A stretch of 9,019 nucleotides of DNA. Origin: a virus (taxonomy: Duplodnaviria > Heunggongvirae > Uroviricota > Caudoviricetes). Made by a program: the position numbers and the translations under genes. This document shows positions 1 to 5,736 of this stretch, one piece after another. Within the stretch, counting starts at the first letter, position 1. Every line of letters begins with the position of its first letter. The stretch lies in the IMG/VR virus record IMGVR_UViG_2657245439_000015; one strand, 5' to 3'. The notes under the pieces were generated by a model, which made no database searches, had not been told where the DNA came from, and was given only the letters and a program-made list of their open reading frames with translations.

Positions 1-715
1 AGTTGATATCCTCATAAAAGGTAATTTCTTCACCTTTATTTTCAACCCTATATGCATCCAATCCATTTTTGAAAGAAGGTGCATAGTCATTTCTATAAAA
101 CTCTGATAACTTATGCAATTCAACCAATTGTCTGCTAACTCTTGCCCTAGGTTTTTTTTGCATTTTTCTCTTTACCTCAATAGGGACAGGATCACTCATT
201 CCTAACGCACAAACATCCCCATGACGTATGACATTAGTAATATCACACAAAACCACTGGAATATTGCATCGCAGCCCCATTTTGAAAACCTTCCACTCTT
301 GCCTGAACCCCTCTTTTCCTGAAATAAAACCTGCATCTTCCTTTACATTATAGTCATCATCATAATATAGAACTTTCAAATTAGAGTTCGGAACATAAAT
401 ATTTGCAATGCCATCCCCGAAAAATCGCCACGTGACTATCAATTCTTTCCTAGCACTCAGCCTAGAATCTATTTTTTTAAGAATTTCCTTTATACCTTTT
501 GACTCTACCTTATTTAACCTCCCACTTCCTTTTATTTTCTTTAAGCGCGCACGTGCTTTCTTAAGTCGGTGTATTCTCTTTTCTTCCTTAACTATTTTTC
601 GTATTAAGAACTTATGAAACTCAAGCAATAAATAATAATTACCCGGTTCTTTTTTTAAATCACCTATAAACCTTGATGCTTCAACAAAACCACATTGATA
701 TTGAGGAAAACGCAT
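1..715 (-). CDS. Hypothetical protein, 3'-partial: at least 238 codons open from ATG 715-713 and continuing past window position 1. Low-GC, lysine-rich cargo gene in the cos-proximal variable region of the P4-like element; function unknown.
   Basis: Hand translation of the minus strand from the ATG at 715-713 gives MRFPQYQCGFVEASRFIGDLKKEPGNYYLLLEFHKFLIRK...VFKMGLRCNIPVVLCDITNVIRHGDVCALGMSDPVPIEVKRKMQKKPRARVSRQLVELHKLSEFYRNDYAPSFKNGLDAYRVENKGEEITFYEDIN with no stop through position 1. An in-frame stop lies just upstream (743-745) and a G-rich Shine-Dalgarno-like GGGG sits 5 nt before the ATG. A 238-codon open frame in AT-rich DNA is very unlikely by chance. Not in the supplied ORF track, presumably because it has no stop in the window. 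Confidence 0.6.
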   Translation of the reverse strand, partial: MRFPQYQCGFVEASRFIGDLKKEPGNYYLLLEFHKFLIRKIVKEEKRIHRLKKARARLKKIKGSGRLNKVESKGIKEILKKIDSRLSARKELIVTWRFFGDGIANIYVPNSNLKVLYYDDDYNVKEDAGFISGKEGFRQEWKVFKMGLRCNIPVVLCDITNVIRHGDVCALGMSDPVPIEVKRKMQKKPRARVSRQLVELHKLSEFYRNDYAPSFKNGLDAYRVENKGEEITFYEDIN

Positions 716-1063
716 GAGCCACCCCGTTACATTTCACTGATAATCATAGAAAAACTCATAGTGAGGTGCAGGTCAAGCAACAATTTTGAAAATTGCGTAG
801 TTCCCCCTCATAATTTACTTATTGGGTTTTTATATACACTTAAGATAAAAAAATCTCAGCTAAATTCGTAGATCGTTTCTGATTCAGATGCATTGGCAGT
901 TTATGGTCACCACAGGAAAGAATACTTCAGGTTAATATCTATAACCGAAGTGAGCGGTTTCAGAAGCAACAGAATCGGCATCATACCCACTACCCCCCCC
1001 TACTCAGCTCTGTGATACGTTCAGGCCGTAAAAAAATAAATAAACAGTTAATGCATGCGCGCG

Positions 1064-1082
1064 GTGCTTTCCCCGCCTCGCC
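1064..1082 (-). other. cos: P2/P4-type cos site: 19-nt cohesive-end sequence
   Basis: Plus strand reads GTGCTTTCCCCGCCTCGCC, the reverse complement of GGCGAGGCGGGGAAAGCAC, which I recall as the 19-nt cohesive end shared by P2 and P4. It lies just beyond the 3' end of psu, as cos does in P4. Flanked by GC-rich dyads (e.g. CCGCCC..GGGCGG at ~1081-1102). Confidence 0.65.
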
Positions 1083-1183
1083 CGCCCGCTTTGCAGGGCG
1101 GTTTTAATGCAGTTGCACAGTCACGCTCAGGCCGCGCCGGGAATGGCGCGGTCTGCAGAAAATGAGGCAGGGAAACGCATGCA

Positions 1184-1216
1184 AAGCCATGCACCTTATC
1201 GATGCATGGCTTTTTT
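1184..1216 (+). terminator. Hairpin with T-tract between cos and the psu 3' end (intrinsic-terminator-like)
   Basis: AAGCCATGCA (1184-1193) pairs with TGCATGGCTT (1203-1212), loop of 9 nt, followed by TTTTTT on the plus strand and preceded by an A-run as seen from the minus strand. The U-tract is strong only for plus-strand transcripts; it may act weakly in both directions (the psu end is at 1247). Confidence 0.35.
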
Positions 1217-1246
1217 CAGTAAAAACGGGCGGATTTTCGGGGAATT

Positions 1247-1819
1247 TTACACAGACTGACGTGATGCCAGTTGCGCACTTTTACGCGAAAAAATCATGTT
1301 CTGCGCAGGGGTGAATTTTTCACGGCTGCCATCCACCGAAGCCGCGTCAGGCCTGAATCCGATGGTCGTTAAAATGTCGCTATCCTGTGCGGAATAATTA
1401 ATTTTTTCCCCCTTCGCAAGCCAGGACAGGAGGGCTTCACGCAGGGCATCTGTGGCACGCTGTATGGCACAGTTTCGGGCAATGGCCGTCAGCTCACTGT
1501 AGCCCATCAGCTCCGGTGCCAGTGCGGCCGCCAGTACTGTGCCGTGCTGCTGCATAAAATCATTCAGCCGGTCGCGGATGCTGATGTGCTGAACGGCTTC
1601 ATGCGAACGAATATAACGACTGGCGGCCTGATTCACCTGCCATTTTCTGACTTCGATAATATTGCGTAATTCGTCCAGGCGACTGACGTTTCTGCCTTCT
1701 CCTGACAGAAGCCGCAGGTATTCCTGTTCGGCCGCTGCCAGCTCATTTTTGCGTTGCAGCCATGCTGCTTTGTTATTCTGACAGGTGTCAAAGGCCTGCT
1801 GTAAGGCTGTGCTTTCCAT
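1247..1819 (-). CDS. psu: Psu, polarity suppression protein (P4 capsid decoration protein / Rho antagonist), 190 aa
   Basis: Complete ORF, ATG at 1819-1817, stop at 1249-1247. Length (190 aa) and position as the third gene of sid-delta-psu, next to cos, match P4 Psu. Recognised from family knowledge, not searched. Confidence 0.85.
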   Translation of the reverse strand: MESTALQQAFDTCQNNKAAWLQRKNELAAAEQEYLRLLSGEGRNVSRLDELRNIIEVRKWQVNQAASRYIRSHEAVQHISIRDRLNDFMQQHGTVLAAALAPELMGYSELTAIARNCAIQRATDALREALLSWLAKGEKINYSAQDSDILTTIGFRPDAASVDGSREKFTPAQNMIFSRKSAQLASRQSV

Positions 1820-1892
1820 CGTTATCTCTTTCTCATCATGCTGAAGAATAAAAATACGGTGTGCGGCGACGGCCGGGGTTAACCGGCAGCCC

Positions 1893-2393
1893 TCATTCCA
1901 GACGCAGCGAATATGATTGTGTTTTTAACCGTACTGGCGGCAGTTCCTGTTTTTCATGCAGGCGTTCTGCCAGTTCGTCCGGTGTGACCGGGCGGACAAT
2001 GAAGCGGTTGATGGTCTGAAGCGTTTTAAACACCAGACCACAGCCCGGATCCGTGCACACATAAAAACGCTCGGTGACTTCCTGAGACAGACGCCGCGAT
2101 GTTCTTGACAGTGCAAGGCCTTTACATCTCCGACAACAATATCCGGTAACAAGCATTCTTTTCGGGCGTTTCATGCTACCGGAGGCTGACGTCAGTGAAT
2201 CGCGGTATCTCTGTTTGCCTGAAATGTATTCCATTCCTGAATCTTTACAGTCAGAGAAAAAGCTTTCACTCGCTTCAAATGTCGCAGAGCAATAAATATT
2301 CCGGCACTGTGCAATCATTATCTTGGTGCCATCGTCCATGAAATGTGCGCGACGGGTGTGAGCAACATGTCCACACGACGGGCAGTAAATCAT
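1893..2393 (-). CDS. delta: Delta, late-gene transcriptional activator of the Ogr/Delta zinc-finger family, 166 aa (two Ogr-like modules in one chain)
   Basis: Translation shows two Cys-rich modules: CPSCG...CRNIYC near the N-terminus and CCRRCKG...CTDPGCG in the second half. Length 166 aa. Its ATG (2393-2391) overlaps the sid stop (2392-2390) as ATGA. Confidence 0.85.
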   Translation of the reverse strand: MIYCPSCGHVAHTRRAHFMDDGTKIMIAQCRNIYCSATFEASESFFSDCKDSGMEYISGKQRYRDSLTSASGSMKRPKRMLVTGYCCRRCKGLALSRTSRRLSQEVTERFYVCTDPGCGLVFKTLQTINRFIVRPVTPDELAERLHEKQELPPVRLKTQSYSLRLE

Positions 2394-3124
2394 GACAGCA
2401 GCCCTCTGGCCTTAAGCTCTGCTCCCTGCTGGTCTATTTTGTCCTGCCACACCTTGCGCTGTGCCGGTGTGCCAGCCACCTCATAATCCATGTGCGGAAG
2501 TGTTGCCGCTGACAGTCCGGTCAGCCGGAGAACCGGCTCGCCGCTGAGGCTGATTTGCATCTGTTTAATTTTCTGTTCCAGCGATGATTTCACCTGCTGC
2601 ATGACAGCCTTATCGGGTGCGACGTAGCCCTGATGGCCGGTGGTGTTGGCGAGCGGATTTTCCTGTACCAGAATGCTCAGATGCATTGCCCGGACAAGCG
2701 CCTCACAGGTTTCATTCAGGGCGTGTTCCAGCTCATGCTCTGCATACAGACTCAGAAGGTGATGATGTGCCTTCCGGTAGGCGGTGGCCGTGCTGTCACA
2801 CGCCCCTTTCAGGCGTTCACGTTCAAAATTCAGCACCACGGCCAGATTGTCATATTCCTGTACCAGCTCCCGGCGTGCCACGCGCTCAATGTGGCGCTGT
2901 TTCAGCTCGTCGCTCAGGACACCACCGGCTGCACGAAAGGCTGTGCGCCAGTCATCAGCGTCATTTCCGTCGGCCTGCGCCAGCGCATTTTTTTCCTGCT
3001 CTGCCCGTTCAATGGCCGTGACGGTCTCATCCATCAGTCGGGCGTTCTCAAGGTGGGCGGCTCTGGCCTTTTCCAGTTGTGCCAGTGCGGGTTGCAGATA
3101 TTCAGGGATGGTGTTGTCAGACAT
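2390..3124 (-). CDS. sid: Sid, capsid size-determination (external scaffold) protein, 244 aa
   Basis: The track ORF 2390..3142 starts at a GTG; the ATG at 3124-3122 (MSDNTIPEYL...) is preceded by GAGGAG and gives 244 aa, the length I recall for P4 Sid. First gene of the late operon, downstream of a TGT-N12-ACA activator dyad. Confidence 0.85.
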   Translation of the reverse strand: MSDNTIPEYLQPALAQLEKARAAHLENARLMDETVTAIERAEQEKNALAQADGNDADDWRTAFRAAGGVLSDELKQRHIERVARRELVQEYDNLAVVLNFERERLKGACDSTATAYRKAHHHLLSLYAEHELEHALNETCEALVRAMHLSILVQENPLANTTGHQGYVAPDKAVMQQVKSSLEQKIKQMQISLSGEPVLRLTGLSAATLPHMDYEVAGTPAQRKVWQDKIDQQGAELKARGLLS

Positions 3125-3149
3125 TTTCCGGCTCCTCGTCACTTCAGGT

Positions 3150-3214
3150 TAAGAAAATTGTGACGTACACCGGACAACAACACGACGCATTGCAGATGTG
3201 CCAGCCCTGACACA
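3150..3214 (-). promoter_or_regulatory. P_sid-like late promoter with Ogr/Delta-type activator dyad TGT-N12-ACA (3197-3214) and -10-like CACAAT (minus strand; plus 3157-3162)
   Basis: Dyad TGT gccagccctgac ACA at 3197-3214; its centre sits ~55 nt upstream of the transcription start predicted from the -10-like element, the geometry of P2/P4 late promoters. A second TGT-N12-ACA at 3159-3176 overlaps the -10 region. Confidence 0.5.
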
Positions 3215-3293
3215 GGAGACTCATCCTCACACCGGCAAGCCAGGAAAAGGTCGCAGGAAAAACCGGCTTACTGTTTGTTTTTTTATATTTTAC

Positions 3294-3397
3294 TGTTCAC
3301 CTCTGTTCACCATAAGAAAAAAGATAAGTAATACAGTAAGTTAAAGGGTGAACAATCGCAGTAATGACTGTTCACCGTCTGTTCACCACTGTTCACC
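3294..3397. repeat. ori1-like iteron cluster: six copies of TGTTCACC/GGTGAACA (alpha-protein binding sites)
   Basis: TGTTCACC at 3294-3301, 3304-3311, 3369-3376, 3380-3387, 3390-3397 and inverted GGTGAACA at 3347-3354; several are spaced ~10-11 bp apart. AT-rich flanks. The same octamer recurs in the repeats at 8121-8418. Lies between the divergent late promoters. Confidence 0.6.
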
Positions 3398-3555
3398 CGC
3401 TCATGGACTTTTTGTGCTGTTTACTACTGTTTATTTTTATTAATTCACTGAAATAAATAAGAAAAAACAATTTGTATTTCACTATAAAAAATTCCAGGTC
3501 CTTCAGAACCCTTTGAGACCCTTCAAGTCCGGATGGATAAAAAACACACAGCCAT

Positions 3556-3620
3556 TGTAAGGCTGCCGGCACAAATCCCCCCTGTTGCGTCTGCTGAAAA
3601 TATTCACAAAATAAAGCGCT
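3556..3620 (+). promoter_or_regulatory. P_LL-like late promoter of the left operon: TGT-N12-ACA dyad (3556-3573) with -10-like CACAAAAT (~3605-3612)
   Basis: Dyad TGT aaggctgccggc ACA; the -10-like element is again ~43 nt from the dyad centre, and its TCACAA core resembles the one at P_sid. Predicted start ~3619, about 395 nt upstream of the predicted P_LE start, matching the ~400-nt spacing recalled for P4 P_LL and P_LE. Confidence 0.45.
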
Positions 3621-3675
3621 ACCCGAAGCCGGACGGACTTATCCGGTGCTGTATGGACATTAACGAGGTAGCCCG

Positions 3676-3942
3676 ATGCAAGCTGTTTTTTCTTCCCCGT
3701 CTCCCGCCCCTGTGACGCCACTGATGCCGCTGCCGGACATCACACAGGAGCGTTTTTTACGTCTTCCGGAAGTGATGCACCTGTGCGGCCTGTCACGCTC
3801 GACCATCTACGAACTCATCCGTAAGGGGGAATTTCCGCCGCAGGTGAGTCTTGGCGGTAAAAATGTGGCCTGGCTGCACTCTGAAGTCACCGCATGGATG
3901 GCCGGACGCATTGCCGGACGCAAACGGGGGTACGACGCATGA
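3676..3942 (+). CDS. vis: Vis/AlpA-family small DNA-binding regulator (excisionase-like HTH), 88 aa
   Basis: ATG at 3676 preceded by GAGG. The translation contains an AlpA-type HTH segment ([44 protein letters not shown]). Length 88 aa and position as the first gene after the late promoter match P4 orf88 (vis). Confidence 0.85.
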
Positions 3943-3977
3943 TGATGCCCGCTCTGCAAAAACTCCCTTTTTCTGGC

Positions 3978-4007
3978 TTGCCTTTTTCCGGCATTTGCGG
4001 ATATAGT
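3978..4007 (+). promoter_or_regulatory. Sigma70-like promoter (P_LE candidate): -35 TTGCCT (3978-3983), 18-nt spacer, -10 TATAGT (4002-4007)
   Basis: Read directly from the sequence. It lies just downstream of vis and upstream of the structured leader, the position of P_LE in P4. Confidence 0.45.
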
Positions 4008-4070
4008 TTTTCCGCTGCCGCAAAATCGGCAGCCGGGCGTGGAAACCCGAGCAATTCACAGGCGACATAT

Positions 4071-4092
4071 GACGCGCCATGCGTCTTTTTTT
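4071..4092 (+). terminator. Intrinsic-terminator-like hairpin in the leader: GACGC-GCCAT-GCGTC followed by T7
   Basis: 5-bp GC-rich stem (4071-4075 / 4081-4085), 5-nt loop, then TTTTTTT (4086-4092), about 75 nt downstream of the predicted P_LE start. Consistent with premature termination in a P4-type immunity leader; the stem is short, so strength is uncertain. Confidence 0.4.
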
Positions 4093-4239
4093 GTGTCGCA
4101 ATCAACGCCACAGAGCGCCAGATTATGGTGTGGTGTGTGGTCAGTCGTGCAGATGGCATTCCGTGCATCCTGCCCGCGTCCGCTCATTATGCCGCAGAGT
4201 CAATGGTAGCTCAGGCGGGGCAGCCTCCGGGCTGGCCGG

Positions 4240-4310
4240 TATCCTGTGAAGCCGGTATTTCCACCCCCGTCTGGGCTATCGCCATCGAGCGTGGAAACTC
4301 CGGCGATAGC
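4240..4310 (+). ncRNA. Candidate CI-like immunity RNA / leader RNA element (approximate boundaries)
   Basis: Two same-polarity boxes GCGTGGAAAC (4037-4046 and 4289-4298), with a partially complementary segment between them (GCCGGTATTTCCACCCCCG, ~4250-4268; TTTCCAC at 4258-4264). A perfect 9-bp stem (GCTATCGCC 4275-4283 / GGCGATAGC 4302-4310) presents the second box in an 18-nt loop. This resembles the seqA/seqB/seqC logic of P4 RNA immunity. Boundaries and processing sites cannot be set from sequence alone. Confidence 0.25.
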
Positions 4311-4340
4311 GTTATTTGCTATTCACAGGAGGCTGCCATC

Positions 4341-4538
4341 ATGGCTACAACCCTTACCCCCTCACACCCTGAATTTGTCTTTGTGTTTGCGGCTGTCCGT
4401 CGCGCAGACCGTCATCCCCGTATCTGCATGCTTCGCACCGTCGCCGGTGATGAACGCAGCGCCCGCCGTTCCCTTGTCCGTGACTATGTGCTCTCCCTTG
4501 CTGCCCGTCTGCCGGTGGTGGAGGTGTCCCGTGCGTAA
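4341..4538 (+). CDS. Kil/Icd-like small protein (host cell-division inhibitor-like), 65 aa
   Basis: ATG at 4341 preceded by AGGAGG (4327-4332). Translation [65 protein letters not shown] resembles what I recall of Icd-like proteins of P4-like elements. The track's longer in-frame ORF from 3894 would run through the promoter and leader and is probably not translated. Confidence 0.6.
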
Positions 4539-4818
4539 TAAAAAAGCCCCTCAGACCGTCTCAGCGCGTCATGACGCCCGTGAACACCTCAGCATTGAGG
4601 CTTACCATAAGCTCAACCGCGCCAGCGCCGTATCCCAGTTTGTTGGGGGTGATTTGATTCACCGTGAACTCTCCGGCCTGCATCAGCTCTACATTCCGCA
4701 TATTTTCAGCTACCTGAATGAAGATATTGATTTTGTGCTGAATGAGCTGAAAGCCAAAGGCCTGTGCCGCGATTTTCTCGCCCAGCAGAAAGACCGGGGA
4801 GACAGGACGCATGTTTGA
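4531..4818 (+). CDS. Small ORF, 95 codons with GTG start; possibly the epsilon/eta-position gene of the left operon
   Basis: The frame is open from 4246, but that would overlap the kil/icd-like gene. GTG at 4531 is preceded by GGAGG (4520-4524) and overlaps the upstream stop by 8 nt; its own stop overlaps the next ATG (ATGTTTGA at 4811-4818). No in-frame ATG downstream. Start choice and identity are uncertain. Confidence 0.45.
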
Positions 4819-5266
4819 TTTTCCCCAGCCCGGTGAGATTTACCGTTCTGCCGGTTTTCCCGATGTGGCCGTGGTCGGCATTCTGGAAGACGGTATTCCG
4901 TGGGAAATGCCGTACCGCTGCCCGGACATTGTCTGGAACCCGTACCGCCGTAAATTCAGTATCCTTGTGCGTATCCTCGCTGACGGACGCACCACAGACA
5001 TCCCGCTGGGGCGTTTTCTGCGGGAATTTACCTGTGACCGTCCTGACCTGTTTAAACGCAGCCCCGTAAACCGGCATGCGGTACTGAAAGAAATGGCCGG
5101 AGACCCGGAATTACAGAAATGGCGGGAAAAATATCTGGATATTTACCCGCAGGACACTGTTCCGGTCAGCCGGGCAGCACCGGTGGCGCGGGAATGGCGG
5201 GAAATTCCCCGCACGGAGCCTGACCCGGAAACCACCCCGGATAACAGTTACCGCAATTATCTGTAA
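4811..5266 (+). CDS. Hypothetical protein, 151 aa (P4 orf151-position protein)
   Basis: Complete ORF whose ATG is coupled to the upstream stop; the length equals that recalled for P4 orf151 in the same operon position. No recognisable catalytic motif. Confidence 0.7.
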   Translation: MFDFPQPGEIYRSAGFPDVAVVGILEDGIPWEMPYRCPDIVWNPYRRKFSILVRILADGRTTDIPLGRFLREFTCDRPDLFKRSPVNRHAVLKEMAGDPELQKWREKYLDIYPQDTVPVSRAAPVAREWREIPRTEPDPETTPDNSYRNYL

Positions 5267-5401
5267 TTAAAAAACGACACCCGAAAAATTAAATGTGCGT
5301 ATTCGCGCAGGGATACGCACGTCTTCAGGAGACGCAGATATGCCTTATCAGTTAATGCAACCGGCACGGAATGCAGTCATCTGTCACAGGGAGGAAAACA
5401 A

Positions 5402-5722
5402 ATGAAAACACCCTTACCGCCCGTCTTACGCGCTGCCCTTTACCGTCGCGCTGTCGCCTGTGCCTGGCTGACCGTGTGCGAACGTCAGCACCGCTACCCG
5501 CATCTCACCCTTGAGTCACTGGAGGCGGCCATCGCCGCTGAGCTGGAAGGCTTTTATCTGCGCCAGCACGGTGAGGAAAAAGGGCGTCAGATAGCCTGTG
5601 CCCTGCTGGAAGATTTAATGGAATCCGGCCCCCTGAAGGCCGCGCCGTCGCTGTCCTTTCTCGGGCTGGTTGTGATGGATGAACTCTGTGCCCGTCACAT
5701 AAAAGCGCCGGTACTGCACTGA
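5402..5722 (+). CDS. Hypothetical protein, 106 aa, immediately upstream of the primase (possibly Cnr-like copy-number regulator)
   Basis: ATG at 5402 preceded by GGGAGG (5388-5393); ends 15 nt before the alpha start. Size and position match the small gene upstream of alpha in P4. The cnr assignment is from memory and not confirmed. Confidence 0.65.
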
Positions 5723-5736
5723 AGGAGAACAACACC

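Follow-up and report, generated by a model that had tools for sequence, protein, structure and literature searches.

A two-gene cargo operon beside cos in a P4-like satellite and a candidate family of nuclease-like defence proteins

The cargo operon and the satellite that carries it

The viral DNA examined here (Caudoviricetes; IMG/VR record IMGVR_UViG_2657245439_000015; 9,019 nucleotides (nt), referred to in its whole length as the window) belongs to a P4-like satellite integrated at ssrA, the gene for transfer-messenger RNA, and its left end holds the first part of a cargo gene lying next to cos. A preliminary description, made from the letters of the window, had placed a lysine-rich minus-strand frame of at least 238 codons at this end, running from position 715 to position 1 and off the window, beyond an abrupt change from GC-rich to AT-rich DNA left of cos. 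This outline proved accurate. The frame opens with ATG and translates through 238 stop-free codons with 12.2% lysine, and stops number 12-31 in each of the five alternative frames of window 1-715. Because such a stop-free run has a probability of ~3e-10 at the local base composition, we take the open frame to be genuine rather than a product of chance. The compositional break is likewise real, since GC content is 34.8% at window 1-715 and 40% at 716-1030 versus 56% at 1031-8100.

Window 1-1100 is 100% identical to Escherichia coli TW10722 (NZ_CP035841.1), and the annotated 25-kb neighborhood of this strain (L001; a window coordinate equals the L001 coordinate minus 12000) supplied the leftward extension that the preliminary description had recommended for recovery of the complete gene and any partners. 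In TW10722 the frame continues uninterrupted to its stop as an intact coding sequence of 435 amino acids (aa), WP_001212158.1, followed by a gene for a 72-aa protein, with the integrase gene (int) beyond it. The two cargo genes are 13 nt apart, an AAGGG Shine-Dalgarno sequence lies 8 nt ahead of the second ATG, and a hairpin, AGATGGCTC-ttatt-GAGCCATCT, follows the stop of the 72-aa gene. They form one two-gene operon. GC content at third codon positions is 0.28 in the 435-aa gene and 0.19 in the 72-aa gene, values typical of foreign cargo. A core or housekeeping identity, or a disruption of the frame beyond the window, had been named beforehand as outcomes that would speak against cargo; the complete gene is neither a P4 core gene nor a housekeeping gene, and its frame is undisrupted.

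The surrounding element has the gene order ssrA, integrase, 72-aa gene, 435-aa gene, cos, psu, delta, sid, a helix-turn-helix regulator, an Icd-like gene and the alpha primase-helicase gene. The presence of psu, delta, sid, the Icd-like gene and the alpha primase-helicase gene, together with P4 immunity RNAs above Rfam gathering thresholds (c4-a1b1 at window 4001-4053, isrK at 4014-4091 and the C4 antisense RNA at 4199-4286), supports the earlier recognition of a P4-like satellite. A direct repeat (D2; L001 9718-9767 versus 20611-20660, 84% identity) bounds an element of ~10.9 kb. At window 1054-1072 lies the reverse complement of GGCGAGGCGGGGAAAGCAC, which we take to be the 19-nt cohesive end of P2/P4. 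The cos-region sequence is also present in the P4 reference fragment of Table S2 of Rousset et al. 2022 (PMC9122126). Coordinates of the operon, its neighbors and the residues discussed below are collected in Table 1.

Table 1. Features of the cargo operon, its flanks and its homologs; positions are those of the window unless a neighborhood label (L) is given
Feature	Position	Strand	Basis
First 238 codons of the 435-aa cargo gene WP_001212158.1	1..715	-	translation and annotation
Rest of the 435-aa gene	593 nt past left window edge (whole gene L001 11408-12715)	-	annotation
N-terminal helical bundle, codons 1-117	365-715	-	AlphaFold2 (AF2) model
PD-(D/E)xK-like core, residues 126-232	20..340	-	conservation in 118 members
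Codon of D101, upstream of core	413-415	-	
Codon of E140	296-298	-	
Codon of D158	242-244	-	
Codon of D167	215-217	-	
Codon of E180	176-178	-	
Codon of K182	170-172	-	
Codon of Q196	128-130	-	
72-aa gene WP_001774581.1	L001 11179-11394	-	annotation
Integrase	L001 9868-11088		annotation
Cargo-specific AT-rich leader (GC 0.40), start codon to conserved cos region	716..1031		sequence
Conserved P4 cos region, right border of hotspot	1032..1100		matched by 977 E. coli genomes
psu (polarity suppression protein), core gene flanking hotspot on right	1247..1819	-	RefSeq WP_000446146.1 and listed open reading frame
att-like copy of 50 nt following ssrA, right satellite end	8611..8660		direct repeat D2
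Pair in P2 slot, Pantoea	L002 8001-9557		
Pair in P2 slot	L015 6001-7554		
Pair in P2 slot	L025 6001-7554		

The leader between the start codon and the conserved cos region is specific to this cargo, as other P4-like elements match only from about window 1032. It carries a Shine-Dalgarno-like GGGGTGG on the minus strand at window 719-725. Upstream of the 435-aa gene, a consensus promoter scan located no convincing site on the minus strand. The highest-scoring sigma-70-like sequence of the leader (TTGAAA-17-CATAAT, 10/12) is on the plus strand at window 786-814 (L001 12786-12814) and is directed away from the cargo gene, toward cos and psu. A retron or other non-coding RNA in the 316-nt leader was considered and rejected, there being no Rfam match in the leader or in the cargo.

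Hotspot position, distribution and relatives

In P4 the anti-phage hotspot is defined as the stretch next to cos that psu and int delimit (Rousset et al. 2022, PMC9122126). The cargo pair lies exactly there, between int and cos/psu and adjoining cos, which agrees with the earlier placement of the frame in a variable psu/cos-int locus. In a survey of 5,426 complete E. coli genomes, 977 matched window 1-1100 over its cos-side ~70 nt, versus 6-7 that matched its cargo part. Both cargo genes occur in the same 7 genomes (0.13%) and are always adjacent, and every inspected E. coli copy of the pair resides in an ssrA-integrated P4-like element. P4-like elements at tRNA-Sec encode core proteins identical to those of this satellite (e.g. 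WP_001149160.1, WP_001244670.1 and WP_000856729.1), and their same slot holds an 'anti-phage dCTP deaminase' together with a small open reading frame (ORF). Content at the locus therefore varies while the core is conserved, and the predicted variability is confirmed both by the genome counts and by the deaminase of the sister satellites. A tblastn search of the deposited phage genomes in INPHARED returned no match.

A related element from IMG/VR (L023, 3991-8849) retains the cargo at 85% and int at 93% identity, with psu at 67%, delta at 37% and sid at 28%. Because int and cargo are both kept while sid and delta are divergent, this element suggests that the two move together between divergent cores; judged from these identities, the hotspot recombination unit may include int. 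In another satellite (L018 7985-10854, E. coli TUM9757), an IS21 element is inserted within sid, and the cargo pair and psu/delta are intact. This satellite is probably defective, yet it has retained its cargo.

P2-like prophages also contain homologous pairs, placed between the portal gene and gpA/DinI (Table 1), with 57-58% identity to the E. coli pair for the large protein and 61-75% for the small. The P2 old/tin hotspot is the cos-proximal interval between gpA and gpQ. Other relatives occupy a wide range of mobile settings. An Enterobacter single-gene member lies at a prophage end after tail-fibre genes, islands bounded by integrases hold the Cupriavidus and Pseudomonas members alongside genes for Mrr_cat, HNH, ADP-ribosylglycohydrolase, PIN or Zeta-toxin proteins, one member adjoins a Mu-like transposase, and one is located in an AlpA/AAA_25 island with Schlafen/AlbA_2, CAP12-type TIR and HipA genes. 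Members from IMG/VR adjoin integrases, Abi_alpha, DUF3800, HipA or HigBA-like genes, or follow a gpD-like tail gene. These relatives behave as cargo or moron genes with defence and toxin genes as neighbors. A 2026 preprint reports that exchange of defence genes between P2 and P4 almost never takes place; the occurrence of the pair in both hotspots looks like an old exception to this pattern or like independent acquisition from a third source.

Two further features of the satellite and its surroundings were recorded. Downstream of the alpha primase gene are two 121-nt direct repeats (window 8117-8237 and 8297-8417; 83% identical, 180 nt start-to-start), a layout that presumably corresponds to the P4 cis replication region (crr), which consists of two ~120-bp repeats ~60 bp apart. 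Directly past the att repeat, a second integrase-led island stands in tandem (window 8742-9019 and beyond; L001 20742-25100), and its products are an integrase, a hypothetical protein of 138 aa, a protein of 581 aa annotated as 'response regulator receiver domain' and an 'ATP-binding protein'. PADLOC-DB gave no match to any of them, and the island may carry another uncharacterised cargo pair.

The large protein family and its small partner

The preliminary description had assigned no motif with confidence, and database searches gave the same outcome: neither cargo protein matched Pfam, NCBIfam or PADLOC-DB, the last (v2, including the Rst_ series, HEC, PDC, PD-T4/T7/lambda and Shedu models) giving no match at E <= 1. 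The 435-aa protein matches one PHROG, phrog_14906 of unknown function, at E 2.8e-38. A word-indexed search of 5.8 billion proteins recovered 44 clusters, one labelled by JGI as 'Holliday junction resolvase' and the others unannotated. When 1.84 billion representatives were searched exhaustively with a profile, 971 matched at E <= 1e-3, 433 of them at E <= 1e-30, and nearly all were full-length at 390-440 aa; the family size of ~970 is a count of clusters at 50% identity. As judged by these searches, the family is sparse but widespread, with a fixed architecture. A frameshifted allele was noted on one Logan contig (P0015, 239 aa); it is identical to the E. coli protein to about residue 187 and then runs out of frame, and is, if not an assembly error, an occasional pseudogene.

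Conservation was evaluated in an alignment of 118 diverse members extending down to ~23% identity. Four residues, D101, D167, E180 and R377, are invariant in all 118, and E140, K182 and Q196 are each present in 117. Conservation reaches at least 95% at E140, D158, T160, N161, R164, G166, K182, R192, Q196 and E255. The AF2 model of the protein (predicted local distance difference test (pLDDT) 83, predicted template modelling score 0.81) consists of three long N-terminal helices (residues 4-117), a small alpha/beta core, and a separate alpha/beta C-terminal domain (residues 234-425) with pLDDT above 90 and no recognisable analogue in the PDB. Within the modelled core, E140 is on helix 135-149, D167 opens the second strand (168-170), E180-x-K182 closes the third strand (177-179), and R195/Q196 are on the next helix. 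The predicted order helix(E140)-strand-strand(D167)-strand(E180xK182)-helix(R195/Q196) is the canonical PD-(D/E)xK layout, with an acidic residue in the helix, D in strand 2 and (D/E)-x-K in strand 3. YYDDD and GSG...D strings, which the preliminary description had noted and distrusted as reverse transcriptase or nucleotidyltransferase signatures, are both present; the distrust was justified because neither is conserved across the 118 members, and such a reading was rejected on these variable positions and on the lack of any RVT or NTP_transf match in Pfam.

The spacing of the core residues, E-27-D-13-E-x-K, is the same as in the Hjc-like nuclease YraN (E24, D51, E64-x-R66), and sub-threshold matches of individual members to Pfam and PADLOC models lean to PD-(D/E)xK families (Hjc, R.HinP1I, PDDEXK_9, Cas4 and CARF_PDDEXK). 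Profile similarity to a recognised PD-(D/E)xK family was not obtained, the best Pfam E values of 0.02-0.08 being under curated cut-offs. A PADLOC scan of the 118 members yielded scattered matches at E >= 0.0017, none recurring in more than two members. Foldseek found no PDB match at E <= 1e-3, and sequence searches of the PDB with core-only and 118-member profiles were empty or returned coiled-coil noise (syntaxin). An hhalign comparison of the core with a YraN profile was not significant (probability 0.27%) and had low power, because the reference alignment is shallow (members at least 75% identical); the single alignment returned at that 0.27% probability sets IEVK on VEVR and RQ on KQ. Since the nuclease call rests on motif and predicted topology, we file the 435-aa protein as PD-(D/E)xK-like by signature and not as a demonstrated member.

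For the 72-aa protein only four clusters of homologs were recovered. It is confined to the enterobacterial P2/P4 branch, in which the large protein has at least 57% identity, and is missing beside large-protein members at 44% identity or less. Where both proteins were compared the small one always had the higher identity (92% versus 86%, 75% versus 57% and 61% versus 58%), and its exact sequence occurs on 959 contigs versus 23 for the 435-aa protein. On Yersinia enterocolitica contigs with a plasmid-like Rep3/Tn3 context (L011-L013, 7001-7219), a 68%-identical homolog lies between a 91-aa ORF and a gene for a 279-aa DUF2971 protein, with an Hcp-like gene and resolvases nearby. The 279-aa and 91-aa proteins were tested as cryptic relatives of the large protein and rejected in that role. 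Matches to TRIP13_N (E 0.2) and, for the small protein, Colicin-DNase (E 0.031) were below cut-offs and were disregarded. Because it is absent beside members at 44% identity or less and stands alone in Yersinia, the 72-aa protein is, on this distribution, an accessory rather than an obligate component.

Interpretation, alternatives and known systems

We propose that the pair is a two-gene cargo operon of the P4 hotspot whose large protein would act as a sensor-coupled defence nuclease, a reading that we judge to have an even chance of being correct. The N-terminal three-helix bundle would provide oligomerisation or autoinhibition, E140, D167, E180 and K182 of the central PD-(D/E)xK-type core would bind metal and cut DNA, and the C-terminal domain would serve as the sensor of a cue from the phage or of some feature of DNA. 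Infection would release the nuclease to cleave phage DNA, or host DNA in an abortive mode, and the host of the satellite, and indirectly the helper prophage as well, would be protected. The 72-aa partner could be an accessory modulator gained by the enterobacterial P2/P4 branch and not universal in the family. Of this picture, the structure of the gene, the layout of the operon, its place in the hotspot, the swapping of cargo there, the breadth of the family and its conserved residues are demonstrated, and the nuclease fold, the catalytic roles, the sensing and the defence phenotype are inferred. In its broadest form, which we advance tentatively and think somewhat more doubtful than probable, the proposal is that the ~970 clusters represent a new autonomous anti-phage nuclease family of Proteobacteria, with a highly derived PD-(D/E)xK core under a C-terminal sensor of new fold, a partner of new type in enterobacteria, and a pair that ranks among the rare cassettes of both P2 and P4 hotspots.

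Earlier surveys bear directly on this proposal. The preliminary description had regarded this locus as the likeliest place in the window for an undescribed system, and this stands in part. The proteins could be placed in no known family and given no known motif; the system itself is not wholly undescribed, because Table S1A of Rousset et al. 2022 (PMC9122126) already contains this very pair as 'hypothetical + hypothetical' and Table S1B counts it 43 times as P4 system #37, with no domain annotated, and because DefensePredictor (Science 2026, PMC13092281) has scored WP_001774582.1, a 99.8% variant of the 435-aa protein. This variant has a mean log-odds of 5.22 (range 4.72-5.94) relative to a strict cutoff of 4 and is designated 'Predicted novel defense gene'. 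A literature search by accession found the proteins only in supplementary tables of two papers and in no paper text. When such candidates were tested, protection was obtained for 7 of 19 P4 systems (Rousset et al. 2022, PMC9122126), for 6 of 8 unknown P4-hotspot loci and for 45% of units predicted by machine learning (PMC13092281).

Several observations weigh against a defence nuclease. About half of the candidates predicted from hotspots or by machine learning give no protection in heterologous assays. The pair was catalogued, yet it is not among the 19 P4 systems cloned by Rousset et al. 2022, and neither its accession nor the family motifs were found among the tested sequences of the DefensePredictor paper or of the 2026 P2/P4 preprint. 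The putative catalytic core is the least confident region of both AF2 models (pLDDT 57-84 and 50-68). As for the proposed role of the 72-aa protein, no domain was detectable in Pfam, NCBIfam, PADLOC-DB and PHROG searches, and Yersinia carries its homolog without the large gene.

Three other explanations have to be considered. The large protein could be a Type IV-like modification-dependent restriction endonuclease in which the C-terminal domain recognises a modified base or DNA of unusual structure and the core directly cuts incoming phage DNA, an arrangement that entails neither abortive infection nor a protein trigger. We consider this unlikely, although it would account for a lone nuclease-like gene in cargo that includes no methyltransferase, for single-gene travel in most lineages, for the Mrr_cat and HNH genes among its neighbors, and for an architecture of catalytic core plus unassigned globular domain. 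Searches showed no similarity to SRA, EVE/PUA, YTH or DUF-type readers, or to the Mrr and McrBC families, and a long N-terminal helical bundle is, to our knowledge, not typical of known Type IV enzymes. The tight coupling of the two genes, with a 13-nt gap and a shared terminator, and their strict co-occurrence in E. coli and in P2-like prophages would instead suit a toxin-antitoxin or addiction module, in which a 435-aa nuclease toxin and a 72-aa antitoxin stabilise the satellite or prophage, with or without secondary anti-phage activity. It also speaks for such a module that gop-beta, which reference P4 carries as its resident cargo, is considered toxin-antitoxin-like (PMC9122126). The obligate and conserved pairing that defines a type II toxin-antitoxin system was not found: most members (37% identity or less) lack the small partner, which suggests that the large protein alone is tolerated, and the small protein occurs alone on the Yersinia plasmid-like contigs. 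It is also the better conserved of the two (75% versus 57% and 92% versus 86%), which is unusual for an antitoxin. The frameshifted allele does not discriminate here; overall we regard this explanation as improbable.

The remaining explanation is that the cargo is not immune in function, the large protein being a DNA-structure-specific nuclease or resolvase for the recombination or replication of the element or for helper interference, or an enzyme in which the conserved acidic residues carry out a chemistry other than that of a nuclease. In its favour, 'Holliday junction resolvase' is the sole label on any family member, Hjc is the target of the weak matches in structure and profile searches, the nuclease fold is a prediction and the C-terminal domain has no analogue, and the L023 element keeps int and cargo while sid and delta diverge. 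Against these points, the gene is dispensable and is swapped among otherwise identical satellites, it is carried by only 0.13% of E. coli genomes, and unrelated element types (P4, P2, Mu-like and integrative islands) carry the family; for these reasons it behaves as cargo and not as a core function of its element. The DefensePredictor score of the variant is likewise at odds with a non-immune role, and we hold this explanation to be just as improbable as an addiction module, or slightly more so.

We regard the 435-aa gene as a good candidate for a new bacterial immune gene. New immune mechanisms, such as PARIS, have come time and again from P2 and P4 hotspots, and this cassette is flagged by its hotspot position, its exchange with a defence gene, the Abi, TIR and HipA company of its relatives, its machine-learning score and its invariant acidic and lysine residues. 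If the reading is correct, about a thousand protein clusters would be added to the defence catalogue, a tractable single-protein system would become available for the study of nuclease-sensor coupling, and a cassette shared between satellite and helper, almost never seen according to the 2026 survey, would be documented. Failure of the defence role would provide a useful negative for prediction from machine learning and hotspots. We consider the locus to be of moderate interest, as it holds real, intact and uncharacterised hotspot cargo that is unsurprising in kind and a well-defined candidate at the family level.

Comparison with known systems places the pair among several partial counterparts. 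Shedu (SduA, DUF4263) is a single-protein defence system of defence islands that joins a PD-(D/E)xK nuclease to a regulatory or sensing domain, and the 435-aa protein is similar in concept, combining in one polypeptide a predicted PD-(D/E)xK-type effector with non-catalytic domains. It is unlike Shedu in having no homology to it (its model is matched at E 0.06 by one family member and not at all by the 435-aa query) and in domain order, as the core is central in the 435-aa protein and C-terminal in SduA. With the Hjc and YraN endonucleases (PF01870, PF02021) it shares E(helix)-27-D-13-E-x-K/R followed by Q in the next helix; its 'IEVKSS' resembles the 'VEVR/EVKS' of these enzymes, and the predicted alpha-beta-beta-beta-alpha order agrees. 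Homologous pairs fill exactly the slot of the P2 old/tin locus in Pantoea-type P2-like prophages, although neither Old (ATPase-TOPRIM) nor Tin is related to the pair in sequence, and in the complete E. coli genomes the pair occurs only in P4-like elements. Known psu-int systems of P4 include gop-beta-cII, PARIS, Helicase+DUF2290 and TIR-NLR (Rousset et al. 2022, PMC9122126), and a 2026 set of P4-hotspot systems comprises Crouga, Bandua, Aernus, Toga, Reve and Hailong. The pair has no sequence relationship to the validated occupants of the hotspot as represented in PADLOC-DB, Rst models included, and resembles the psu-int systems in its slot, in its form as an AT-rich cassette of one to three genes that may lie in either orientation, and in being swapped among identical cores.

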